In this document: positions 2,737-60,123 of the stretch, piece by piece
Layout of the letters: every line of letters begins with the position of its first letter
Numbering within the stretch: position 1 is the stretch's first letter
Assembly (NCBI GenBank): GCA_964440955.1
Contig: CAYTTP010000002.1
Location: 18,372 to 82,371, forward strand
Length of the DNA stretch: 64,000 nucleotides
Reading direction: 5' to 3'
Source of the DNA: an uncultured Candidatus Saccharibacteria bacterium
GTDB lineage: Bacteria > Patescibacteriota > Minisyncoccia > Phycocordibacterales > WO2-35-19
The notes under the pieces: generated by a model
The model's database searches: none
The model's input: only the letters and a program-made list of their open reading frames with translations
Told to the model about the DNA's origin: nothing
Position numbers and translations under genes: made by a program

Positions 2737-3936
2737 TTAGAATGGGTTTTTGGCCCCACGGATTTCAAAGTGAAGATGAATACCAGTTGCTTTACCGGTC
2801 GAACCCATAAGCGCGATCACATCGCCCTTTTGAACTTTGTCGCCGACCGAAACCTTGTTTTGGTTATTGTGAGCATAAAGAGTTTGGGTGCCATTGTCAT
2901 GTTTTATAACAATATAATTACCATAACCACCATTCCAGCTACCACTACGACTTACTATAACCTCTCCGGAAGCGGCTGCAAAAATAGGGGTATTTAGAGC
3001 GGCTGCCAAGTCAACGCCATTATAACCATGTATACCTTGAGTCCTTTTACCTACAGCAACAGGCCTCATATAATAACTATTTGATTCAATTGAAGCTTCG
3101 ACATAAACACCTGCAGAGGTTTGACTTACCGATGGCGAAGCTTCGCCATCGGGAATAATGATGGTAGTACCGACTGCAAGGGACCCACTCTCAATAAGAT
3201 TGTAGTTTTTTATATCTTCAATATCTGCTTTATACTCCTTAGCTATCGAGGAGAGGGTATCGCCATTTTTAACCGTGTAAGAGATACCGGAAATAGGTAA
3301 GATAACCAGAACTTCTCCCTCCCTTAAGGTATTTGACGATAGGTCATTGCTCCACTTTATGGTATTGACCGTAACTCCAAACATTTCGGCTATTTGAGAG
3401 AGAGTGTCGCCTTTGTGAACAACGTAAGTGCTAATTTGATCGTTTTCAGGTTTGCGCTCGATGATATTTTTTTTGCTGGACACGCCTTTTTCTTCAGCAA
3501 GAAGAGCATTGTCTTCTATTTTTATTTCAGTAGAAATTTTGCTTGGCAGGGAAGCTGCGCTCAAAAGCGCCATACTCTCAAGAGAAGATGTTTTGACAGA
3601 TTCAGCGGCATGTAATGGTCCAAACATACCGTTTATGGTGAGCGAAATCGAACCAGAGAGCGCCCCTATCAGACCAGCTGAAACCGATATTGGCAATAGC
3701 AACACTAACAAAACGAGACCTACTCTTTGGAGTGAGCTCTTTTGCATACCTCGAACCCTGAGTCTGATTTTCCTTAAAAAATAAGGGGGTTTTGACTGAC
3801 CAAAACTGAATAAGGGTAAAATAGCTTTATGGTTAATGGTAATTCCGACTTTCTGCCATTTAATGGCTCTGTAAAGCCATATTTCTGGTGGTCGGTATTT
3901 TTTGGGAACAAGAGTAATTATAACTTTTTGGAGCAC
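2737..3936 (-). CDS. Membrane-anchored peptidoglycan hydrolase: two LysM repeats plus a C-terminal M23 peptidase domain
   Basis: Two LysM motifs (YVVHKGDTLSQIA; YTVKNGDTLSSIA) and an M23 Zn motif (GVDLAA...HLHFEI). Confidence 0.85.
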   Translation of the reverse strand: MLQKVIITLVPKKYRPPEIWLYRAIKWQKVGITINHKAILPLFSFGQSKPPYFLRKIRLRVRGMQKSSLQRVGLVLLVLLLPISVSAGLIGALSGSISLTINGMFGPLHAAESVKTSSLESMALLSAASLPSKISTEIKIEDNALLAEEKGVSSKKNIIERKPENDQISTYVVHKGDTLSQIAEMFGVTVNTIKWSNDLSSNTLREGEVLVILPISGISYTVKNGDTLSSIAKEYKADIEDIKNYNLIESGSLAVGTTIIIPDGEASPSVSQTSAGVYVEASIESNSYYMRPVAVGKRTQGIHGYNGVDLAAALNTPIFAAASGEVIVSRSGSWNGGYGNYIVIKHDNGTQTLYAHNNQNKVSVGDKVQKGDVIALMGSTGKATGIHLHFEIRGAKNPF

Positions 3937-13465: not shown

Positions 13466-14089
13466 ATGGCTAACAACGCTACTCAAGAATTTGTCCCGAT
13501 AGACGATGTGCGCGACGGCGTCGTTATTTTGAAAGACGGTAGTATTCGCTACGTACTTATGGCTTCGAGCATAAACTTTTCCCTAAAGTCAGCTGACGAA
13601 AGGCAGGCCATCCTCCTTCAGTTTCAAGATTTTTTGAACTCTCTGGATTTTTCAGTTCAAATATTGGTCGAGTCTCGAAAACTTGATATACGGCCCTACA
13701 TAGCTGTTTTGGAAGAGCGATACAAAGCCCAAACCAACGATCTTATGAAAGTTCAGATCGAACAATACATCGAATTCGTCCGAAGCTTCACCGAGTCGTC
13801 AAATATAATGACCAAAAATTTCTTTATCATCGTACCTTACGACTCAGCAATAATATCGACCCAGTCCGGATTTCTCGGTAGTTTGGTCAGCAAAAAGGAC
13901 GCCAAAAAACAACAAGACGATAGCTTTGAAGAAAATCGAAACCAACTCGAACAGCGAGTAAGTGTGGTCGAGCAAGGTTTGTCGAGATGTGGAGTAAGAG
14001 TTGCAAGGCTTGGAACCGATGAAGTGGTAGAATTATTTTACAAAGTATTTAACCCTGGCGAATCAGAAAAACCAATCAAAATTAGTTAG
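13466..14089 (+). CDS. Hypothetical protein resembling the extreme N-terminus of VirB4/TrbE ATPases
   Basis: FVPIDDVRDGVVILKDGSIRYVLMASSINF...ERQAILLQFQDFLNSL resembles the VirB4 N-terminal region. A 100-nt spacer separates it from the ATPase ORF. Confidence 0.35.
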   Translation: MANNATQEFVPIDDVRDGVVILKDGSIRYVLMASSINFSLKSADERQAILLQFQDFLNSLDFSVQILVESRKLDIRPYIAVLEERYKAQTNDLMKVQIEQYIEFVRSFTESSNIMTKNFFIIVPYDSAIISTQSGFLGSLVSKKDAKKQQDDSFEENRNQLEQRVSVVEQGLSRCGVRVARLGTDEVVELFYKVFNPGESEKPIKIS

Positions 14090-14101
14090 AAACTAATTTT
14101 A

Positions 14102-14183
14102 GAATCAAGAATTATGAATCACGAATTATGGTACGAAAAGAAAAATGGGTTGTATGATTCATACTTCATAATTCATAATTCAA
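14102..14183. repeat. AT-rich inverted-repeat pair with nothing between the arms (25-nt spacer), lying between the two VirB4-related ORFs
   Basis: GAATCAAGAATTATGAATCACGAATTATGG ... TGATTCATACTTCATAATTCATAATTCAA. Confidence 0.6.
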
Positions 14184-14192
14184 TTTAAAAAT

Positions 14193-15989
14193 ATGTTTGA
14201 TTTTTTCAAGAAAAAAGAAAACAAAAAATTGACCAATGTCTCGGTTTTACCGACCACTATCACCGAGAGTGCCGAGCTCGAATTGCGCGATATTTTGGCG
14301 CCCTCAGCCCTAAAGGTTAACGCCAAAGAACTAAACTTGGGTGAAAAGTTAGTGCGTAGCTTCTTCGTCATTTCATACCCACGCTTTCTTTCTGAGGATT
14401 GGTTTTCACCGATTATCAATATGGATAAAATGTTCGATGTCTCTATTTTTATTCACCCGCTTGAAACAGCCAAAGTTCTTCGCACTTTCCAAAAAAAAGT
14501 AGCCGAAGTTCAAAGCCAAATCCGTACTCGGGAAGAAAAGGGGTTGGTACGCGACCCAGTACTCGACACTGCCTACCAAGACCTTGAGAACTTGCGTGAC
14601 GACCTCCAACAGGCGCAGGAAAAAATGTTTGAGGTTGGCCTTTATGTCTCTGTTTATGCAACCACAAGCGAAGAACTCGATAAGGTAGAGTCCGAAATAA
14701 AGTCAATGATGGAGTCGAAACTCGTCTACATCAAACCGGCCCTGTTTCAACAAGAACAGGGTTTTCGCAGCATCTTACCGATCGCCAAAGACGACCTATC
14801 GGTTCACTCTAAAATAAATTCGTCACCACTTTCAAGCGTTTTCCCATTCATTTCCTTTGACCTTACCTCCGACAAAGGTATCCTCTACGGAATAAACCGA
14901 CACAATTCGTCTTTAGTTCTTTTTGATCGCTTCTCGCTAGAAAATTACAACTCAGTATGTCTCGCTAAATCAGGGTCAGGAAAGTCTTTTGCCACCAAAC
15001 TTGAAATATTGCGTACTCTCATGTTTGACGCAGAAGTAATAGTTATTGATCCAGAAAATGAATATGAATATATGGCGGAAGCGGTCGGTGGCCGATATTT
15101 CAACATCTCCCTCAACTCTGACCACCATATAAACCCATTTGAATTGCCAATACCAGGTGAAGACGAGTCAAGTGCAGCAGTTTTGAGAAGCCAAATAATA
15201 AACTTGGTTGGGTTGTTTCGTATCATGATGGGTGGGCTCACTCGCGAAGAAGACGCTATCATTGATCAAGCAATAACCGAAACCTATGCCTTGAAAGACA
15301 TCACGGCCGACTCCGATTTTAAAAATATTGAACCCCCTCTTTTATCTGACTTTGAGCTCGTGCTTGGTGGTATGGAAGGAGGAGCATCACTTGCTCAACG
15401 TATTTCAAAATATACCAGAGGTACTTGGGCAAACTTTATAAACAGGCCATCAAACATCGATATCAACAAACAATTCATTGTTTTTTCAATCCGAGACATG
15501 GAGGATGAGTTGAAGCCAGTCGCTATGTATATCGTAACCCACTATATATGGAACGCGATCCGTCGCGAACTCAAAAAACGCCTGCTTGTGATTGATGAGG
15601 CTTGGTGGATGATGAAGTCCGAGGATACCGCTTCGTTTTTGCTTTCACTCGCAAAACGCGGCCGAAAATACTATCTTGGACTCGCCACCATCACCCAAGA
15701 CGTTGACGACTTTTTGAAATCGCCTTATGGTACACCAATCATCAGCAACTCCTCGATCCAAATACTTCTAAAGCAGTCGCCAACTACCATCGACCGGCTT
15801 CAAGAAGTCTTCAACCTCACCGATGAGGAAAAATATTTGTTGCTCGAGTCGGGAGTAGGGGAGGGAATATTTTTTGCCGGACTCAAACATGTGGCGATCA
15901 AAATAATCGCTTCTTACACCGAAAGCCAAATTATCACTTCCGATCCTTCCCAAATACTTGCCATCAAGCAAATGAAAAATAAGTTATAA
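14193..15989 (+). CDS. virB4: VirB4/TraC/TrbE-family type IV secretion ATPase
   Basis: Walker A CLAKSGSGKSFATK; Walker B LLVIDEAWWMM; LGLATITQD motif. Confidence 0.8.
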   Translation: MFDFFKKKENKKLTNVSVLPTTITESAELELRDILAPSALKVNAKELNLGEKLVRSFFVISYPRFLSEDWFSPIINMDKMFDVSIFIHPLETAKVLRTFQKKVAEVQSQIRTREEKGLVRDPVLDTAYQDLENLRDDLQQAQEKMFEVGLYVSVYATTSEELDKVESEIKSMMESKLVYIKPALFQQEQGFRSILPIAKDDLSVHSKINSSPLSSVFPFISFDLTSDKGILYGINRHNSSLVLFDRFSLENYNSVCLAKSGSGKSFATKLEILRTLMFDAEVIVIDPENEYEYMAEAVGGRYFNISLNSDHHINPFELPIPGEDESSAAVLRSQIINLVGLFRIMMGGLTREEDAIIDQAITETYALKDITADSDFKNIEPPLLSDFELVLGGMEGGASLAQRISKYTRGTWANFINRPSNIDINKQFIVFSIRDMEDELKPVAMYIVTHYIWNAIRRELKKRLLVIDEAWWMMKSEDTASFLLSLAKRGRKYYLGLATITQDVDDFLKSPYGTPIISNSSIQILLKQSPTTIDRLQEVFNLTDEEKYLLLESGVGEGIFFAGLKHVAIKIIASYTESQIITSDPSQILAIKQMKNKL

Positions 15990-26723: not shown

Positions 26724-26740
26724 CCTAAATCATCTAAAAC

Positions 26741-26778
26741 AAAAACCACCACGTCAGACGTGGTGGTTTTTGTTTTAT
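26741..26778. terminator. Bidirectional rho-independent terminator (ACCACCACGTC-AGA-CGTGGTGGT followed by a T-tract)
   Basis: 11-bp perfect stem followed by TTTTTGTTTT. Confidence 0.65.
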
Positions 26779-26994: not shown

Positions 26995-27513
26995 CTACAA
27001 ATTTCTTGTGGATAAAATGGTGGCTGATGATGTAAGAGCTATCGCGATCGCGTCGTATTCATCGTCTATTTTTTTGTCATTTTTGGTTAGGCGCAAAATC
27101 TTTCTGACCATGTCTATCACCTGGTTTTTATCGCTTTTGCCATAGCCAGTGACCGCTAGTTTTACTTGATTTGGGTTGTACTCCCTCACTTCGACTCCAT
27201 ACTCAGCTCCTTTTTGTAGTATCACGCCACGCACTTCGGCGACCATGAGTGCGGTCTTTACATTTTTGCTGAATAAAAGATTCTCGACTGCAAGTATTGC
27301 TGGATTGTATTTTTTAAAGATTCGATCGAGCTTTTTGGCTACTAGATTTAGGCGTTCTGGGTGGGGGATTTTGGCTTCTGTTTCAAAACACTCGGAATGA
27401 ATTAAGTTGTCACCAATATTTGTTTTTTCAATCACCGCAATCCCTAGTCGGCCATAACCGGGGTCGATACCCAATATAAATGAATTATGAATTATGAATT
27501 TTGAATTATGCAT
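26995..27513 (-). CDS. ruvC: Holliday junction resolvase RuvC
   Basis: ILGIDPGYGRLGIAVIE catalytic motif. The first 11 codons are supplied by an AT-rich repeat, so the true start may lie a few codons downstream. Confidence 0.85.
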   Translation of the reverse strand: MHNSKFIIHNSFILGIDPGYGRLGIAVIEKTNIGDNLIHSECFETEAKIPHPERLNLVAKKLDRIFKKYNPAILAVENLLFSKNVKTALMVAEVRGVILQKGAEYGVEVREYNPNQVKLAVTGYGKSDKNQVIDMVRKILRLTKNDKKIDDEYDAIAIALTSSATILSTRNL

Positions 27514-27541
27514 AATTCTTGATTCTCAATTCATTATTCAG
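27478..27541. repeat. AT-rich inverted-repeat pair between yebC and ruvC
   Basis: TGAATTATGAATTATGAATTTTGAATTATG / CATAATTCTTGATTCTCAATTCATTATTCA; it supplies the first codons of ruvC. Confidence 0.6.
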
Positions 27542-31074: not shown

Positions 31075-31115
31075 AAAAATATTATAGCATGACCTATTTT
31101 CTCCTATGCAGACCT

Positions 31116-31152
31116 TACCCCCCAGCCCCTCTCCTAGAATTAGGAGAGGGGA
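31116..31152. repeat. GC-palindrome family copy A (ACCCCCCAGCCCCTCTCCTAGAATTAGGAGAGGGGAG)
   Basis: Seen directly; shares a leader with copy D and a 23-nt core with copy B. Confidence 0.6.
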
Positions 31153-31764: not shown

Positions 31765-32229
31765 ATGAAAATAGTCTCGAAAAGCGAAAAGGAAACCGCT
31801 CAAATCGCCAAGGATTTTGCTAAAAGTCTTAAATCAAAAGAGTCTGGCGCGACCATTGTCGGGCTTTATGGCGACTTGGGTGCCGGCAAAACCACTTTCA
31901 TGAAGTCAATAGCGAGCGCTCTTGGAGTGGAGGAGACTATCCAAAGCCCTACTTTTGTTATTATAAAAATCTTCAATCCCGCCTCATCGGCGGACAAGTT
32001 GCAACCTGTAATTTTCAGTAAATTAATCCACATTGATGCATATCGCATCGAAGACGAAAAAGAAATGTTGACTCTTGGGTGGGATTCTATTTCAAAAAAC
32101 AAAGAAAATATTATTTTTGTGGAATGGCCAGAGAGAATATCAAAAATAATTGGTGATCATATCAAGATAAATTTTGATCATGGAAAAAGTGAAAATGAAC
32201 GGGTGATTGAAATACAAAATGAAGAGTGA
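31765..32229 (+). CDS. tsaE: tRNA threonylcarbamoyladenosine biosynthesis protein TsaE
   Basis: P-loop GDLGAGKTTF plus the SPTF motif. Confidence 0.8.
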   Translation: MKIVSKSEKETAQIAKDFAKSLKSKESGATIVGLYGDLGAGKTTFMKSIASALGVEETIQSPTFVIIKIFNPASSADKLQPVIFSKLIHIDAYRIEDEKEMLTLGWDSISKNKENIIFVEWPERISKIIGDHIKINFDHGKSENERVIEIQNEE

Positions 32230-34582
32230 TAAAAAACAAAAAAATAAAAAGCTAGTTTTGCTTGACGCGCACGCGATCATTCATCGCGCTTATCATGCTC
32301 TACCTGATTTTGCGACAAGTAAAGGCGAACCAACAGGAGCATTGTATGGTCTTGTACTCATGATACTAAAAATAGTTTCTGAGCTTTCGCCGGACTATAT
32401 TATTGCTTGTTTTGATTTGCCTAAGCCGACCTACCGTCATGAAGTCTATGAGAGTTACAAAGCTGGTCGGGCCAAAACCGATGACGACCTTTCAGTCCAA
32501 CTTGAAAAAGCTCGGGAGGTTTGTGAGGCTTTAAATATCCCTATATATTCACTTGAAGGGTTTGAAGCAGACGATATGCTCGGCACTATTGTAGAGGAGT
32601 CTAAAGACATTGATATTGTTATTGCCTCGGGTGATATGGATACTTTGCAGTTGGTTGCCGATAGGTACAATGGTGGTTCGGTCGCTGTTTATACTTTAAA
32701 AAAAGGTATCAACGAAACAGTGATCTATAACGAAGAGAAGGTTTTGGAAAGGTTTGGTTTTGGTCCGAAGCTTTTGCCTGACTACAAGGGTTTGCGTGGT
32801 GACCCATCGGACAACATTGTTGGTATTGAAGGTATTGGAGAAAAGAGCGCGACCGACTTACTTGTCAACTTTGGCTCAATTGAAAAAATATATGAGTCTT
32901 TGAAGAAGGATGAAAAGAAATTTGAAGAGAAGGGAATTAAAAAAAGAATTATTGAACTTTTGAAAAATGGTGAAGAAGAAGCGCGTTTTAGTAAAATGCT
33001 GGCTACCATTCGTCGTGACGCCCCAATCGATTTTCAACTACCAAAAGAGGAGTGGGCTAAGGGGGTGGATATGAAAAAGGCAGGAGAGATATTTGCCCGC
33101 TACGAGTTTCGTTCGCTTGGTAGTCGGCTTGAATCGGCTCTAAATTCACGGGGGGTTAAGATAGAAAAGGAAAAAGGTGAAGTTCTTTCTCCTGAATTGT
33201 TAGAAGAGACAAAGGTCGCTTTGTGGGTCGTTGATTCAAATATTACCAACCCTAAAGAGGAAGATATTTTAAATTTTGCCAATACCAATTCTTTTGTTGA
33301 AGCAAAAAATTTAATTTTTGAAGAGCTCAAAAAAAGAGAAAGTGAGGATGTGTTTTTGAAGATAGAAAAGCCGATTATACCCATTATCGCCAAAATGGAG
33401 GAGAGGGGGGTTAAGATAGACATTGGTATTTTTGAAAAGCTAAAAAAAGAGTATTCTTTAGAACTTGAAAAAATAGAAACGGAAATATGGCGCCTCGCTG
33501 GCGAGAAATTTAACATTGCTTCTCCAAAACAGCTTGGTGAAATACTTTTTGACAAGCTTGGTCTTTCGGTCAAAAACCAAAAAAAGACCGGTACTGGAGC
33601 AAAATCTACTAAGGAGTCTGAGCTTCAAAAAATGAAGGACTTGCATCCTATTGTACCTTTGATTTTTGAATACCGTGAAATTTCAAAAATAATCGGTACC
33701 TATATCGAGCCAATACCGGCGCTTGTTGGTGCAGATGGACGTTTGCATGCACACTTCATCCAAACTGGTACGACGACCGGTCGCATGGCTTCGCAAAATC
33801 CAAACCTGCAAAATATTCCGATAAGTTCCGAACGGGGACGAGCTTTGCGTGACGCCTTTGTAGCCGAGTCGGGATTTGTTTTTGGTTCTTTTGACTACTC
33901 TCAAATTGAACTTCGCATCGCTGCTTTTTTGTCGGGCGATAAGACGCTAATTGAGATCTTTAAATCAGGAGAGGACGTGCATACGAGTGTGGCCGCTGTC
34001 GTGTTTGGAGTATCACCTGAAGAGGTAACCAAGGAAATGCGCCGCGAGGCAAAAGTCATAAATTTCGGCATTCTCTATGGAATGGGGGTGACGGCTCTCC
34101 AGCAAAATTTGGGTTCTGATCGTGCGACTGCTCAAAATTTTTACAATACTTATTTTGAAAGGTTTCCTGATTTAGCCAAATATTTGGATGACACCAAAGC
34201 GTCGGCTAGTAAGCTTGGTTATACCAAAACTTTTTTTGGTCGTCGCCGTTATTTTGAGGGGATGAAATCAAAAATCCCGTTTATCAAAGCGGCGGCCGAG
34301 CGGATGGCGATAAACGCGCCGATCCAGGGTACTCAAGCAGACGTGATAAAAATAGCGATGAAGCGGATCGATGATTTTTTGGTAGCCGAGAAGCTCGACC
34401 AAAAGGCTTATCTCATTTTGCAAATTCACGATGAGTTGATTTATGAAATCGCCGAAGAGGTGAAAGAAAAGGTGGCGCCAAAAATAATAGAAATAATGGA
34501 GAGCGTGTTGGGCCCAGAAGACACCAAGGGTGTGCCGATTTTGGCTGATTCGGCGTTTGGTAAAAATTGGGGGGAGGTATAA
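32207..34582 (+). CDS. polA: DNA polymerase I (791 aa)
   Basis: N-terminal 5'-3' exonuclease domain (LVLLDAHAIIHRAYHA) and C-terminal polymerase motifs (RRxAKxINFGxxYG, QIHDEL). Confidence 0.9.
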   Translation: MKYKMKSDKKQKNKKLVLLDAHAIIHRAYHALPDFATSKGEPTGALYGLVLMILKIVSELSPDYIIACFDLPKPTYRHEVYESYKAGRAKTDDDLSVQLEKAREVCEALNIPIYSLEGFEADDMLGTIVEESKDIDIVIASGDMDTLQLVADRYNGGSVAVYTLKKGINETVIYNEEKVLERFGFGPKLLPDYKGLRGDPSDNIVGIEGIGEKSATDLLVNFGSIEKIYESLKKDEKKFEEKGIKKRIIELLKNGEEEARFSKMLATIRRDAPIDFQLPKEEWAKGVDMKKAGEIFARYEFRSLGSRLESALNSRGVKIEKEKGEVLSPELLEETKVALWVVDSNITNPKEEDILNFANTNSFVEAKNLIFEELKKRESEDVFLKIEKPIIPIIAKMEERGVKIDIGIFEKLKKEYSLELEKIETEIWRLAGEKFNIASPKQLGEILFDKLGLSVKNQKKTGTGAKSTKESELQKMKDLHPIVPLIFEYREISKIIGTYIEPIPALVGADGRLHAHFIQTGTTTGRMASQNPNLQNIPISSERGRALRDAFVAESGFVFGSFDYSQIELRIAAFLSGDKTLIEIFKSGEDVHTSVAAVVFGVSPEEVTKEMRREAKVINFGILYGMGVTALQQNLGSDRATAQNFYNTYFERFPDLAKYLDDTKASASKLGYTKTFFGRRRYFEGMKSKIPFIKAAAERMAINAPIQGTQADVIKIAMKRIDDFLVAEKLDQKAYLILQIHDELIYEIAEEVKEKVAPKIIEIMESVLGPEDTKGVPILADSAFGKNWGEV

Positions 34583-34595
34583 TACCTCACCCCAT
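34568..34595. repeat. GC-palindrome family copy F (GGGGAGGTATAATACCTCACCCC), overlapping the polA stop codon
   Basis: Seen directly. Confidence 0.45.
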
Positions 34596-36268: not shown

Positions 36269-36320
36269 ACCTCACCCCACCTCGCTATACTAGGCACTCT
36301 CCTAGAATTAGGAGAGGGGG
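36269..36320. repeat. GC-palindrome family copy B (CCTCACCCCACC...CTCTCCTAGAATTAGGAGAGGGGG)
   Basis: 23-nt core identical to copy A. Confidence 0.6.
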
Positions 36321-39037: not shown

Positions 39038-39116
39038 GATTGAATTATGAAGTATGAAGTATGAATTAAGAATTATGCATCGGAAACCATAATTCATCAT
39101 TCTTTATTCATGATTC
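39038..39116. repeat. AT-rich inverted-repeat pair between murE and mutM
   Basis: GATTGAATTATGAAGTATGAAGTATGAATTAAGAATTATGCAT / CCATAATTCATCATTCTTTATTCATGATTC; it supplies the last codons of murE. Confidence 0.6.
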
Positions 39117-41443: not shown

Positions 41444-41472
41444 AAATCGGGTCGCCTTCTGGCGACCCGATT
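41444..41472 (-). terminator. Rho-independent terminator of the minus-strand histidine phosphatase gene
   Basis: ATCGGGTCGCC-TTCT-GGCGACCCGAT stem with a T-run on the minus strand. Confidence 0.65.
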
Positions 41473-45249: not shown

Positions 45250-45366
45250 TTATTTTGATTAGAGTTGGCTATAAATAATAAGTTTACTATACAATAAAAA
45301 AACTTTTGTGAAAATCAGATTTATGTTGTAGTATCTTCTTACAGAGATCGTGATTGAAAACAACGC

Positions 45367-45454
45367 GGAGGAGTGGCTCGAGAGGTTTAAGGCACTGGTC
45401 TTGAAAACCGGCATACTCGAAAGGGTATCGTGAGTTCGAATCTCACCTCCTCCG
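45367..45454 (+). tRNA. tRNA-Ser (anticodon TGA)
   Basis: Acceptor GGAGGAG/CTCCTCC, anticodon loop CTTGAAA, long variable arm, T-loop TTCGAAT; promoter TTGTGA-17-TAGTAT upstream. Confidence 0.85.
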
Positions 45455-45531
45455 CAGTGTTTTCAATCGAACCTTATCTCATTAGCTAAGCGAAATAAAA
45501 TAAATAAATCCAACAAAAGATTTTTAAAATA

Positions 45532-56287: not shown

Positions 56288-57736
56288 ATGAAAGATAAGA
56301 CTTTTTATATTACAACGACTATTCCTTATGTGAATGCCGATCCGCACATGGGTTTTGCTCTCGAGCTTGTGCAGTCGGACGCAATCGCTCGGTATCACCG
56401 ACTCAAAGGTGAGGAGGTGTTTTTTAATACCGGTACTGACGAGCATGGACAAAAAATTTGGGAAGCAAGCCAAAAAGAAGGGCAGGAGGTACAGGCTTAT
56501 GTCGACCGTTATGCAGCCAATTATTTTAACCTGACCAAAACCCTCAATCTTTCTAATGATAATTTTATTCGTACTACCGACGAGGCTCATATAAAAGCAG
56601 CCCAAGAAATGTGGCGCATTTGCGAAGCGAAGGGGGATATATATAAAAAGAAGTATAGGGGGTTGTATTGTGTCGGGTGTGAAAAATTTCTAATCGAGCG
56701 CGATTTGGTAGATGGAAAGTGTATTTTGCACCCAACCAAGGAGCCAGAAGTGGTGGAGGAAGAAAATTACTTTTTCAAACTGACCAACTACCGAGACCAA
56801 CTTCTTGACTACCTTTCAAACGAAAACTCTATTGCTCCAGATTGGCGTCGTAAGGAGGCAATTGAATATGTGAAAGAGGGTATGGAAGATTTCTCGATTT
56901 CTCGAAGTAAAGAAAGATTTTCGTGGGGAGTGCCGGTACCGTGTGATGAGAGTCAGGTGATGTATGTGTGGTTTGACGCGCTTGTAAATTATATTTCAAC
57001 TCTTGGGTGGCCACACGAGAAAGAAAAATTTGAAAAATTTTGGCAAGGCGGTTTTCACATGCAAACCGCTGGCAAAGATATGGTCAAGTTTCAGTCAGTG
57101 ATGTGGCAGGGGATGCTCCTCTCGGCCGGGCTTACACCAACAAGCACAGTGGTTTATCACGGGTTCATCACGGCCGAAGGTGGGGTCCGTATGTCGAAGT
57201 CATTGGGCAATGGGGTAAATCCGGTTGACATAGCCAGTGAATATGGAACCGATGCTTTACGTTACTTTTTATTGCGCGAAGTCTCAGTTTTTGAAGACAG
57301 TCCATTTACAATTGAGAGGTTTAAAGAAGCGTATAACGCCCATTTGGCTAATGGGTTGGGAAATTTGGTTTCGAGAGTTATGACTATGGCGGTTAAAAAT
57401 AATATAAAAATAAGAGAGTCAGATTCTGATCTGTTTAATTTTTTCAAACCTGGCTATATATCAGAATTTGTTGAAAAATTTGAGATAAATAAAGCAATGG
57501 ATTTGATTTGGGGAAAAATTGGCAAGGCAGATTCATTTATACAAACCAAGGAACCTTTTAAGAAGATAAAGAGTGACAAAGAATCTGCAACAAAAGATAT
57601 ACAGGAATTGCTCTGCGAATTAGCGGAAATATCAGTTTGTCTTAGGCCGTTTTTGCCACAAACTGCTAAAAAAATTGAAACATTAGTGAGAGAAAATAAA
57701 ATGTCAGAAGTTTCTCTATTTCCAAGAAAAGATTGA
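56288..57736 (+). CDS. metG: Methionyl-tRNA synthetase
   Basis: P.VNADPHMG (HIGH-like), KMSKS (RMSKSLGN), zinc knuckle CVGCEKF...CILHP. Confidence 0.9.
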   Translation: MKDKTFYITTTIPYVNADPHMGFALELVQSDAIARYHRLKGEEVFFNTGTDEHGQKIWEASQKEGQEVQAYVDRYAANYFNLTKTLNLSNDNFIRTTDEAHIKAAQEMWRICEAKGDIYKKKYRGLYCVGCEKFLIERDLVDGKCILHPTKEPEVVEEENYFFKLTNYRDQLLDYLSNENSIAPDWRRKEAIEYVKEGMEDFSISRSKERFSWGVPVPCDESQVMYVWFDALVNYISTLGWPHEKEKFEKFWQGGFHMQTAGKDMVKFQSVMWQGMLLSAGLTPTSTVVYHGFITAEGGVRMSKSLGNGVNPVDIASEYGTDALRYFLLREVSVFEDSPFTIERFKEAYNAHLANGLGNLVSRVMTMAVKNNIKIRESDSDLFNFFKPGYISEFVEKFEINKAMDLIWGKIGKADSFIQTKEPFKKIKSDKESATKDIQELLCELAEISVCLRPFLPQTAKKIETLVRENKMSEVSLFPRKD

Positions 57737-57770
57737 CCCCACCCCAACCCTCCCCTTGGTCAGGGGAGGT
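57736..57770. repeat. GC-palindrome family copy C (CCCCACCCCAACCCTCCCCTTGGTCAGGGGAGG)
   Basis: Seen directly; lies in the metG-tatD spacer. Confidence 0.5.
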
Positions 57771-57783
57771 AAGAAAAAATTAT

Positions 57784-58605
57784 ATGAAATACATCGATAT
57801 ACATTGCCACTTGGATTTTCCTGACTATGGCGAACAGTTAGTGGATGTTTTGGCGAGGATGAAAGAGGGTGAGGTCGGGGCGATTACTATTGGCACCGAC
57901 CTTGAAAGTTCAAGACGTGCAGTAAAGATCGCGGAAGAAAATGAAAATATTTGGGCCTGTATTGGAGTGCATCCGGTAGATATCACCCCCCAGCCCCCTC
58001 TTATAATAAGAGGGGGAGAGCGAAGCGAGGGGGTGATATTAGAATTGGAAGAACTCATTAAAAGCGAAAAGGTGGTAGCGATAGGTGAATGCGGACTCGA
58101 TTATTTTAGATTACCAAAAGAGGAAGATAAGATAAAAGAGGAAAAAGAGAGACAAGAAAAATTATTTCATCAACAAATAGAATTTGCTTTGAAGCATGAT
58201 AAGCCACTTATGCTTCATTGTCGAACGGCATACAAAGAAGTTTTGGACATTTTGGAAGAATATAAGAAAGGCGAAGGAGGAGAAAAATTGAGAGGTAACT
58301 GTCACTTTTTTGCTGGTACAGTAGAAGAGGCAAAAAGATTTGTCGGCTTAGGCTTTACTTGTTCATTCACGGGTGTGATTACCTTCACTCATGATTATGA
58401 CGAAGTAATAAAAAGTTTGCCACTCGATTCGATCATGTCGGAGACTGATGCGCCGTTTGTGGCCCCTGTACCACATCGAGGTAAGCGCAATGAACCAACC
58501 TTTGTTATAGAGGTGGTCAAAAAACTCGCTCAAATAAGAGGTTTGAAGGAGGAGGAGGTGGCTCAAATTTTGCTCCAAAACGCCAAACGAATTTTTGCTT
58601 TTTAA
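57784..58605 (+). CDS. tatD: TatD-family metal-dependent hydrolase/DNase with a 20-codon repeat-derived insertion
   Basis: IDIHCHLDF N-terminal motif, GECGLDY, and D near the C-terminus. Start set to MKYIDIH because the ORF-track extension crosses an intergenic palindrome. The in-frame insert is at 57980-58040. Confidence 0.75.
   Translation: MKYIDIHCHLDFPDYGEQLVDVLARMKEGEVGAITIGTDLESSRRAVKIAEENENIWACIGVHPVDITPQPPLIIRGGERSEGVILELEELIKSEKVVAIGECGLDYFRLPKEEDKIKEEKERQEKLFHQQIEFALKHDKPLMLHCRTAYKEVLDILEEYKKGEGGEKLRGNCHFFAGTVEEAKRFVGLGFTCSFTGVITFTHDYDEVIKSLPLDSIMSETDAPFVAPVPHRGKRNEPTFVIEVVKKLAQIRGLKEEEVAQILLQNAKRIFAF
57980..58040. repeat. GC-palindrome family copy D, 60 nt with terminal inverted repeats GATATCACCCCC / GGGGGTGATAT, inserted in-frame in tatD
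   Basis: Nested palindromes; the length is a multiple of 3; it encodes DITPQPPLIIRGGERSEGVI. Confidence 0.6.
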
Positions 58606-58728
58606 TAATACTTATGGTATCTTGCTGGTACTGATCTCGAGGCGTATCTTATTATAATAACGTCTCTATCCTGAGTTTTTACCCTGAATATATAGAAGGG
58701 TATCGAAGGACCCGGTCAGTTAAAAATA

Positions 58729-59975: not shown

Positions 59976-60012
59976 AGGTAGGCCTATAATTCCTGCGCTC
60001 GATACGAAAAAA

Positions 60013-60052
60013 CCTTCCTAAAATTCGGCCTAAGCCAAATTTTAGGAAGGTC
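60013..60052. terminator. Long hairpin terminator (ACCTTCCTAAAATT...AATTTTAGGAAGGT followed by a T-tract) between rpsR and efp
   Basis: 14-bp perfect stem, 12-nt loop, followed by CTTTTCTT. Confidence 0.65.
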
Positions 60053-60123
60053 TTTTCTTGTCCTCGGCCTAGTGGGCCTGCGGAATCTCGCTTAGGAAAT
60101 TTTAACTACTGGCTCTGCAGATT

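Follow-up and report, generated by a model that had tools for sequence, protein, structure and literature searches.

The first descriptions of BoxC repeats date from the 1990s, and the BoxC/PIT/TM repeats are the described elements closest to the one treated here. The TM element of Holder et al. 2015 (PMC4666352) has the layout CCCTCTCCC, loop, GGGAGAGGG, TTA, GGGTGAGGG. According to the same paper, TMs in Escherichia coli are always intergenic, are unlinked to transposons, phages, and plasmids, have no mobility gene nearby, and are tied to local genomic variability; PIT/TM elements show no promoter or terminator activity, and TMECO forms a stable triplex in vitro, with none detectable in vivo. 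The paper makes no mention of ycjD or DUF559. A second point of reference is the Rickettsia palindromic elements (RPEs; Ogata et al. 2000/2002), which the summary in PMC10969869 gives as about 100–150 bp long and restricted to Rickettsia. Here we describe a 60-nt palindromic element, copy D, that lies in frame within the tatD gene of an uncultured Candidatus Saccharibacteria bacterium, on a stretch of 64,000 nucleotides of contig CAYTTP010000002.1 (the window).

We think it probable that copy D is a mobile or gene-converting element without an open reading frame (ORF) of its own, tolerated and translated in TatD, with an endonuclease of the DUF559 family as its putative partner. It belongs to a superfamily of G/C-rich nested palindromes of about 35–60 nt, in which a hairpin with one pyrimidine (Y) and one purine (R) arm is flanked by mirror-repeat arms that pair with each other.

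The palindrome in TatD

The gene, the element, and the parts of the element are as follows.

57784..58605, + strand: tatD, the intact host gene, 273 aa, with ATG at 57784 and stop codon at 58603-58605
57980..58039, + strand: copy D, a complete nested palindromic element of 60 nt, in frame within tatD
57980..57991, + strand: left outer arm, or C-rich third strand, ATATCACCCCCC, a mirror repeat of the hairpin pyrimidine arm
57994..58016, + strand: inner hairpin CCCCCTCTTA-TAA-TAAGAGGGGG, with a perfect 10-bp stem and a 3-nt loop
58017..58028, + strand: spacer AGAGCGAAGCGA with the mini-hairpin GC-GAA-GC
58029..58039, + strand: right outer arm, or G-rich third strand, GGGGGTGATAT

From 57980 to 58039 the element reads ATATCACCCCCC-AG-CCCCCTCTTATAATAAGAGGGGG-AGAGCGAAGCGA-GGGGGTGATAT. 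Its outer arms (57980-57990 and 58029-58039) are complementary at 11 of 11 positions, and its folding energy as RNA or single strand is -36.4 kcal/mol, with a z of -5.5 relative to dinucleotide shuffles. It begins at the second base of codon 66 and encodes approximately D66 to I85 (..ITPQPPLIIRGGERSEGV..); because it is 60 nt long and lacks a stop codon, the tatD frame is kept. The gene product matches Pfam PF01026 (TatD_DNase) end to end (E = 2.5e-76), and its catalytic and other alignment columns are invariant among orthologues. Thus the description in an earlier note on this DNA, of a nested 60-nt palindrome carried in frame by an intact tatD, holds. In an AlphaFold2 model with a mean predicted local distance difference test score (pLDDT) of 88.6, only residues 67-82, the loop between strand 3 and the next helix (beta3-alpha3), fall below 50; the insert is therefore a disordered surface loop that the protein tolerates, and it is read through by the ribosome.

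The closest TatD proteins come from metagenome-assembled genomes (MAGs) of Paceibacteria/Patescibacteria and are 60–73% identical to that of the window. The segment from GxHP to GECGLD spans 33–35 aa in most Paceibacteria and 46 aa in the window protein (GVHP..GECGLD), so the net gain relative to an insert-free segment of 35 aa is 11 aa and not the 20 residues that the earlier note had counted; copy D replaced native loop codons, or native loop codons were lost afterwards. The loop contents of about 110 orthologues divide as follows.

No insert: about 26
PPLxxRGG(ERSEGV), the window type: 18
PSLxxREG: 7
xPSPxQGEGWGEV, reverse orientation: 18
Other palindrome-encoded peptides: the rest

The expectation that the insert would be missing from other TatD proteins is therefore borne out for the insert-free group and contradicted by the 18 that carry the same PPLxxRGG residues. 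The earlier note had regarded shared residues as a sign of ancestral protein sequence. That conclusion does not follow from the orthologues found to share them, since conservation is at the nucleotide level and not at that of the protein, and the orthologues outside these two groups carry other palindromes. The insertion is old and shared, or has been turned over by recombination, and is not private to the window genome. On a star-like neighbour-joining tree of 110 masked TatD proteins, the insert types are interspersed.

We compared this region at the DNA level in syntenic metG-tatD-rpsF-ssb-rpsR loci of relatives, designated by L-numbers. The TatD loop is uninterrupted in L164 and L168, while the same element with an identical stem occurs in TatD of L161, L162, L165, L167, L169, L170, L171, and L173, the hairpin loops of these copies differing (TAA, ATT, CTT, ATG, or AAT). 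Family members stand in the opposite orientation in L166 and L093 and a few codons downstream of the usual position in L085; L082 contains two hairpins, and L001 an unrelated 12-bp palindrome. The L171 copy has canonical TAAC/GTTA-type ends, its TAAC being derived from native GAT-AAC codons. No frame-breaking insert was found at this loop in any of the 170 loci examined, and the 21 loci outside the motif pattern, considered as candidate frameshifted or interrupted tatD alleles, proved to be variant motifs with canonical loops. The TatD loop is thus a recurrent landing or exchange site for family members. TAG occurs on both sides of copy D, and restoring the site on that basis leaves a loop 10 aa too short; because the termini are palindromic, TA or TAA duplications are inseparable from the element ends.

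The element is also conserved at synonymous sites. A codon alignment of eight diverged TatD genes with the type-I insert contains 39 columns with a common fourfold-degenerate codon family, and the third base is invariant in four of them, all in the stem (P71, P72, L73, and G77); at G78, just beyond the stem, it varies. The chance of all four invariant sites falling there at random is 1/C(39,4), about 1e-5. Mean pairwise third-position identity, 0.47 over the whole gene, reaches 0.76–0.91 over residues 68-85 and drops on both sides; the synonymous sites next to the element are saturated. This is unlike the decay of a neutral relic and fits selection on DNA or RNA, homogenization from other copies, or recent exchange. 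A pair of relatives shows that exchange happens. The TatD proteins of L172 and L173 are 92% identical and hold different subfamily members in the loop, one with CCCTCTCTT/AAGAGAGGG and a GGGTGAGTTA end, the other with CCCCCTCTTA/TAAGAGGGGG, and their metG-tatD spacer copies differ by the same subtypes. Identity between the two loci is a mosaic, 73–90% over the spacer and the first third of tatD and 95–100% on either side, as would be expected of an imported tract.

Three further observations concern tatD. A near-match to the terminus motif at 57866-57875 (GAGGGTGAGGT, minus-strand ACCTCACCCT) coincides with conserved KEGEVGA codons and is probably native coding sequence without an element. Further tiny GC-rich palindromic inserts occur elsewhere in TatD of relatives (SASRRT/SASWRT in L166 and P0015; PPRFGETSSH in P0012 and P0085; for example TCCGCCAGCCGGCGGA). 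The tatD-rpsF spacer (58606-58728) contains a hairpin-rich block, ..GGTA..GAGGC..TTATAATAAC..GCCTCT.CCCTGAG..AAGGG.., whose sequence and layout are kept among syntenic relatives; it is probably the leader of the S6 operon, and an Rfam search at the gathering threshold gave no call for it.

Spacers, phage contigs, and DUF559 genes

Outside TatD, family members vary in presence between relatives at the same intergenic sites. The metG-tatD junction is filled by a solo element in the window and in L161, L162, L165, L172, and L173; it is empty, with the genes abutting, in L164, L167, L169, and L171; and it holds a DUF559 ORF in L168, L024, L037, L069, L106, and L023. The ssb-rpsR spacer is filled in the window and L167 only and is empty in L161-L165. 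Downstream of rpsR, L162 carries ATATCACCCCCAGCCCCCTCTTACCCTTAAGAGGGGG, which resembles the left two-thirds of copy D.

Perfect hairpins in the Paceibacterial loci (2.26 Mb) cluster in a few genomes (L037, L065, L024, L069, and L077), and 32 of the 92 perfect hairpins of related loci lie in frame within long ORFs. These include paired inserts at orthologous positions in FtsK of L037 and L065 and single cases in TsaD and in a reverse-transcriptase-like ORF. A second hot spot was observed in MetRS, at YISTLGW[..]FEKFW, where six loci hold different family members (L106, L107, L166, L170, L171, and L131); the window MetRS (56288-57736) has an insert-free loop, PHEKEKFEKFW.

A scan of the IMG/VR database for CCCCCTCTTANNNTAAGAGGGGG returned 33 copies in 25 contigs of 43–62% GC. 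In several cases a viral copy keeps the frame of a Mu-type portal, protease/ChaB, or GemA protein and encodes the same peptide, N[AS]PQPPL[NK]LRGGEGGV. Of the hairpin's three frames, one never contains a stop (PPLxxRGG), one is conditionally open, and one always contains TAA; copies within ORFs almost all use the never-stop frame, as predicted by read-through translation plus selection. Manual alignment and per-sequence folding define a canonical full element of 47–60 nt, in which TAAC[TG]CCCCC is separated by 2–4 nt from the hairpin and GGGGG[CA]GTTA forms the end, with an optional GAA-looped mini-hairpin of 3 bp before it. The mini-hairpin covaries (GCC/GGC, GGC/GCC, and GCG/CGC), and a 1x1 mismatch in the outer stem (T.C or G.A) is conserved. 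The spacer of copy D, with its mini-hairpin, is homologous to this covarying one.

The genes that recur beside these units encode DUF559 (PF04480), placed in the same class as Vsr and I-Bth0305I, a homing endonuclease (PMC3424549), and matching PDB 3hrl (E = 4e-17). In Caulobacter, a DUF559 protein is a DNA-damaging nuclease that elicits the SOS response in cells lacking a methylase (PMC12907096). Searches of the Paceibacterial loci by tblastn and hidden Markov model detected ten distinct DUF559 ORFs. Every one has family units in its flanks, in seven cases with a perfect hairpin at most 200 nt away (about 0.03 expected per ORF), and six occupy the metG-tatD junction itself, which in the window holds a solo element (copy E).

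The arrangements fall into several geometries. A DUF559 ORF may sit at the apex of a split palindrome, as in L106, with a perfect 26-nt inverted repeat (TACCCCCACCTGACCTCCCCCTACAT), and in L168; between two inner hairpins within outer ends (ATCACCACCCC..GGGGTGGTGAT in L037; ACCTCACCCC..GGGGTGAGGT in L106); or between two complete direct copies (L037 and L024). In layout, copy D matches such a cassette minus its ORF, with a left end, one hairpin, a right spacer, and a right end. A database search yielded 1624 DUF559 homologues, mostly from Patescibacteria, and at least 24 of the best 120 read into element peptides (for example FSPPCGGGV..GRGGDL, TTPNPLLEKEGS, and TPSLVKEGAGGGN).

An independent set of viral contigs, mostly about 70% GC, provides further cases. 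There, 26 of 31 DUF559 loci have CCTCCCCC..GGGGGAGG hairpin units and a GGCCC-GAA-GGGCC mini-hairpin, and in 21 the units stand inverted on both sides. We also observed that viral DUF559 cassettes (L199-L226, about 70% GC) lie just downstream of TTGAGAACAAATGAAGAAC, that is, GAAC-N7-GAAC, which is like the alphaproteobacterial SOS box and hints at possible LexA control.

In E. coli K-12, the DUF559 gene ycjD (1351407-1351760) is 165 nt from TMECO no. 9 (1351204-1351239). Of 5426 complete genomes, 3378 have the gene; in those lacking it, homology to K-12 ends about 35 nt before the TM, and there is no TM at that site. The gene and the repeat are part of one presence/absence segment. It stands at the edge of a larger variable segment in the fabI-sapF region (L230/L231), and strains without ycjD and TMECO no. 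9 have a TetR/RND efflux cluster after fabI instead.

Copies in the window and family assignment

Five further copies lie in the window, at the sites that the earlier note gave for them; gene identities beside them were checked with Pfam.

31112..31151, + strand: copy A, ACCTTACCCCCCAG plus hairpin CCCCTCTCCTA-GAAT-TAGGAGAGGGG with an 11-bp stem, between divergent genes, upstream of a T2SSE/PilB-type ATPase gene
34568..34594, no strand assigned: copy B, abutted termini GGGGGGAGGTA-TAA-TACCTCACCCC, G-arm first
36269..36320, + strand: copy C, leader ACCTCACCCC plus hairpin CTCTCCTA-GAAT-TAGGAGAG(GGGG), 1 nt past the stop codon of a SpoU-methylase gene
57736..57769, + strand: copy E, ACCCCACCCCAA plus hairpin CCTCCCCT-TGGTC-AGGGGAGG, filling the metG-tatD spacer straight after the metG stop codon
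59696..59751, + strand: copy F, ACCTCACCCCC .. AACTCCCC TAA CCCCTCTTA-TAT-TAAGAGGGG(G), in the ssb-rpsR spacer, 1 nt past the ssb stop codon

Copies A, C, D, E, and F have stems of 8–11 bp and loops of 3–5 nt. Copies A and C share an identical hairpin and both contain GGAGAGGGG, and copies D and F share the stem subtype CCCCTCTTA/TAAGAGGGG. The leader-plus-hairpin description that had been given for every copy does not fit copy B, with its abutted termini; that copy folds at -17.2 kcal/mol (z = -3.45). The polA gene (32207-34582) ends within it (..NWGEV-TAA), so the gene appears to take its final residues and TAA stop codon from copy B; the Pfam DNA_pol_A match of the product still extends to the end of the profile.

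Shuffle tests uphold a dispersed GC-rich palindromic family, with hairpins and leader far above chance. Perfect Y/R hairpins occur at four loci of the window (eight nested matches by the counting method), with 0.07 expected per Markov-shuffled window and a maximum of two. The leader ACCTCACCCC occurs three times exactly and 12 times with at most one mismatch (1.8 expected), a count that none of 100 shuffles reached, and the pattern CCCYCTY..RAGRGGG matches four times (0.05 expected).

For comparison with TMs, we scored how many third-strand bases in a row, running antiparallel to the purine arm, would fit into G.G-C, A.A-T, or T.A-T triads.

Copy D: 9 on each side (spacers of 3 and 12)
Copy E: 8
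Copy F: 8, after a TTA spacer
Copy C: 7, with a spacer of 21, too long for the strict definition
Copy A: 5
Published TMECO: 9

The hairpins of copies A, C, D, E, and F pair a polypyrimidine arm with a polypurine arm and fall within the limits set for BoxC/PIT/TM (stem 6–15, loop 1–6), and the family is related in sequence to the GGGTGAGGG / GGGAGAGGG consensus; the leader ACCTCACCCC is the reverse complement of the TM third strand, GGGGTGAGGT. Because the triad runs and the mirror-repeat third strand match, we place the family with BoxC/PIT/TM by architecture, its triplex capacity being predicted. Shared features are the order of blocks (a pyrimidine and a purine arm around a loop, then a short spacer, often TTA, and a GGGTGAGGG-type G-rich mirror repeat), the palindromic paired configurations, and presence or absence that varies between relatives. 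Copy D lies within tatD and copy B overlaps the end of polA, so the family is not confined to intergenic DNA; an intergenic location is a descriptive trait of one species and does not define the class. TMECO is reported to be always intergenic and to have no phage or mobile link and no partner gene, whereas the window family occurs in proteins and Mu-like phage contigs and flanks DUF559 genes. Its stems are also AT-richer in the middle (CTCTTA/TAAGAG) than those of BoxC/PIT/TM, and its full elements have, in addition, an outer stem that closes them and a mini-hairpin.

The likeness to RPEs that the earlier note had drawn is one of behaviour: insert-free orthologues exist (L164 and L168), and in-frame carriage recurs in housekeeping and phage proteins. 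As in the RPEs summarised in PMC10969869, a reduced genome carries palindromic inserts that keep the frame of unrelated housekeeping genes, at fold-tolerant sites, with no known transposase. Compared with the RPEs described there, the window family is shorter (35–60 nt), is G/C-rich, has no sequence relation to them and drew no Rfam or other match, is common to phages and distant phyla, and shows synonymous-site conservation. The window elements are thus RPE-like and are not RPEs. Nor are they an oddity of one reduced genome, as had been supposed, given their BoxC/PIT/TM architecture and their occurrence in Mu-like phage contigs.

Three other systems are comparable in part. Yeast mitochondrial GC clusters and byp elements (PMC8811140, PMC4478555) are likewise short GC-rich palindromes of an AT-rich genome with in-frame inserts in a protein gene (var1) and fast change in the loops. 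Their units merge and are shuffled, and their copies convert one another; the TAG or AG terminal repeats of GC clusters find a weak parallel in the TAG on both sides of copy D. In contrast to the window family, they are organellar, have other sequences, are in some cases bypassed, and have no described associated endonuclease gene of the DUF559 family. REP/BIME repeats with RAYT, and MITEs, are also short dispersed imperfect palindromes at gene boundaries, of which solo copies far outnumber ORF-bearing ones. Terminal inverted repeats are present in the full elements (TAAC[TG]CCCCC..GGGGG[CA]GTTA), whose palindromic ends would mask a target-site duplication, and no RAYT or insertion-sequence (IS) transposase was found in the loci searched; the ORF-bearing relatives encode no known transposase, and the ORF is DUF559, a PD-(D/E)XK Vsr-like nuclease. 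Finally, Vsr-like (EDxHD) homing endonucleases such as I-Bth0305I, and free-standing homing genes, belong to the same nuclease clade as DUF559 (PMC3239194, PMC2677866, PMC3424549). A small, selfish-looking ORF at the same metG|tatD junction of divergent genomes, with empty, ORF-less, and ORF-bearing states, resembles such genes, whereas DUF559 cassettes lack an intron or intein context and their flanking palindromic/triplex units are no known feature of homing genes.

No literature on palindromic elements of the candidate phyla radiation or Patescibacteria was found, and in the literature searched we did not find the in-protein hot-spot behaviour, the occurrence in Patescibacteria and Mu-like phages, the synonymous-site conservation, or the DUF559 association.

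Several candidate identities for the hairpins were rejected. They are followed by no T-run and drew no calls from a terminator scan, and with the G-arm 13–17 nt from start codons they are too distant to mimic a good Shine-Dalgarno sequence. As integron attC sites they fail because their ends are only loosely like RYYYAAC/GTTRRRY, their orientations are mixed, and some copies lie within ORFs. At gathering thresholds, Rfam returned tRNAs only, both for the window and for the three element-rich and four viral loci scanned with it.

The window also contains other repeats. A 29-nt inverted repeat, 86% complementary, lies at 60001-60062 between the convergent rpsR and efp genes and is probably a bidirectional terminator. 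The AT-rich repeat TGAATTATGAATTAT, with related long imperfect inverted repeats (27481-27540, 39041-39076, and 14074-14202), is a second repeat family unrelated to the palindromic elements. A weak 88-nt tRNA call (45.8 bits) is located between the arms of a 22-nt inverted repeat (45352-45373 / 45447-45468), and three perfect palindromes stand outside the family, at 26735-26777 (a 21-nt arm pair), 3129-3152 (CCGATGGCGAAGCTTCGCCATCGG), and 41445-41472 (AATCGGGTCGCCTTCTGGCGACCCGATT).

Origin and meaning of the elements

In the mechanism that we propose for copy D as an ORF-less mobile or gene-converting element, solo elements would be non-autonomous derivatives, partners, or targets of DUF559 cassettes. 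The DUF559 endonuclease may break DNA at or near the palindromes, and repair from other copies, or from the DNA of other cells, would then spread, exchange, and homogenize them by homing-like gene conversion. The mosaic tract between L172 and L173 and their parallel replacement of subtypes lend such conversion indirect support. Purifying selection on the host protein would leave only in-frame, stop-free copies in permissive loops. A wider and more tentative proposal, which we hold possible and would not yet call likely, is that YcjD-type, Vsr-like DUF559 endonucleases are the missing trans-acting partner of BoxC/PIT/TM repeats across bacteria and phages, recognizing or cutting the units and driving their gene conversion.

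Several points weigh against the proposed origin of copy D. The conservation of the element could equally stem from a role of the DNA or RNA structure in the cell, and there is no covariation in situ because the stem is constant in all type-I TatD copies. Neither the 64-kb window nor the 25 viral contigs with the exact hairpin contain a DUF559 gene, so that a partner acting in trans has to be assumed. Both geometries are seen, fitting either an ORF that invades palindromes or solo elements derived from ORF cassettes. The TatD insertion is old, and no target-site duplication or transposition footprint was established. The neighbour-joining tree, of a 250-aa protein at 60–70% identity, is poorly resolved, and recurrent insertion is not fully separable from a single insertion followed by recombination and loss. 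Finally, the data come mostly from MAGs and short contigs.

The main rival is that the elements are selected cis-acting sequences, not currently mobile. Their role could be that of a structure in the DNA, of a site for protein binding, or of a hairpin in the mRNA by which segments of the metG-tatD-rpsF-ssb-rpsR transcript are stabilised or processed, and the TatD copy would be kept for the usefulness of its structure. This would account directly for the invariant synonymous sites of the stem and the high third-position identity over the whole element, for the covarying mini-hairpin, and for the position of the five oriented window copies at gene boundaries with the polarity of the surrounding genes; the stable triplex formed by TM DNA in vitro (PMC4666352) also speaks for it. 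A fixed cis-acting role is harder to reconcile with both orientations at the same TatD and MetRS loops, with variation of presence, absence, and type among close relatives, and with the same element in unrelated phage proteins. Moreover, PIT/TM elements showed neither promoter or terminator activity nor a stable triplex in vivo (PMC4666352), and no Rfam family matches. We regard this explanation as unlikely, though it is the most serious competitor.

Next comes a conventional Y1 or other transposase, in which case the elements would be REP/MITE-type repeats moved by a tyrosine HUH enzyme (RAYT, IS200/IS605-like) or another transposase, and DUF559 a passenger or neighbouring insertion. No IS200/RAYT-like ORF was found below E = 1 in the 2.26 Mb, a weak test with an approximate IS200 TnpA query; no transposase Pfam match occurs among the called genes of L161-L173; Holder et al. 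(PMC4666352) found no transposase near TMs; and DUF559 is the only gene class that recurs beside the units. These results make the transposase explanation doubtful, in spite of the REP-like size and conserved head-plus-hairpin layout, the constant TAAC..GTTA ends and 1x1 outer-stem mismatch of full elements, which recall strand-specific hairpin recognition by IS200/IS605, and the derivation of TAAC at the TatD site from native GAT-AAC codons.

The last two alternatives are both highly improbable, and we consider them essentially excluded. That the 20 residues are an ancestral TatD loop and the palindrome incidental would suit the 18 orthologues (60–73% identity) with PPLxxRGG(ERSEGV) at the same position, but equally close orthologues are insert-free (P0008, 72%; P0013, 69%), the canonical Paceibacteria loop is 35 aa, conservation is at synonymous sites, near-identical DNA stands in spacers (L162 downstream of rpsR) and phage genes, and the segment is modelled as disordered. 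Ribosomal bypass of an untranslated insert, as with the Magnusiomyces mitochondrial byp GC clusters or the T4 gene 60 gap, is suggested by GC-rich hairpin inserts in an AT-rich genome (PMC8811140), but every insert at the TatD loop keeps the frame and is stop-free, and nearly all in-ORF copies use the never-stop frame, which bypassing would make needless.

BoxC/PIT/TM repeats have been known since the 1990s from hundreds of genomes with no function, mobility mechanism, or partner gene assigned. The present observations extend the range of the family to Patescibacteria and Mu-like phages and show in-frame carriage in essential proteins, with the same TatD and MetRS surface loops hit repeatedly and the element nucleotides protected far beyond the needs of the protein. 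For annotation, they account for many odd PSPxxGEG and PPLxxRGG peptides and for length polymorphisms in MAG proteins. Genes of DUF559, an uncharacterised endonuclease family, flank the units recurrently in genomes from 31% to 73% GC, including that of E. coli with ycjD, a link that would make the origin of the repeats directly testable and give DUF559 a biological role. If DUF559 is indeed the partner, the breaks that it makes in small AT-rich genomes would seed in-frame peptide inserts in housekeeping proteins, and DUF559 activity would explain the genomic instability reported around TMs in E. coli.

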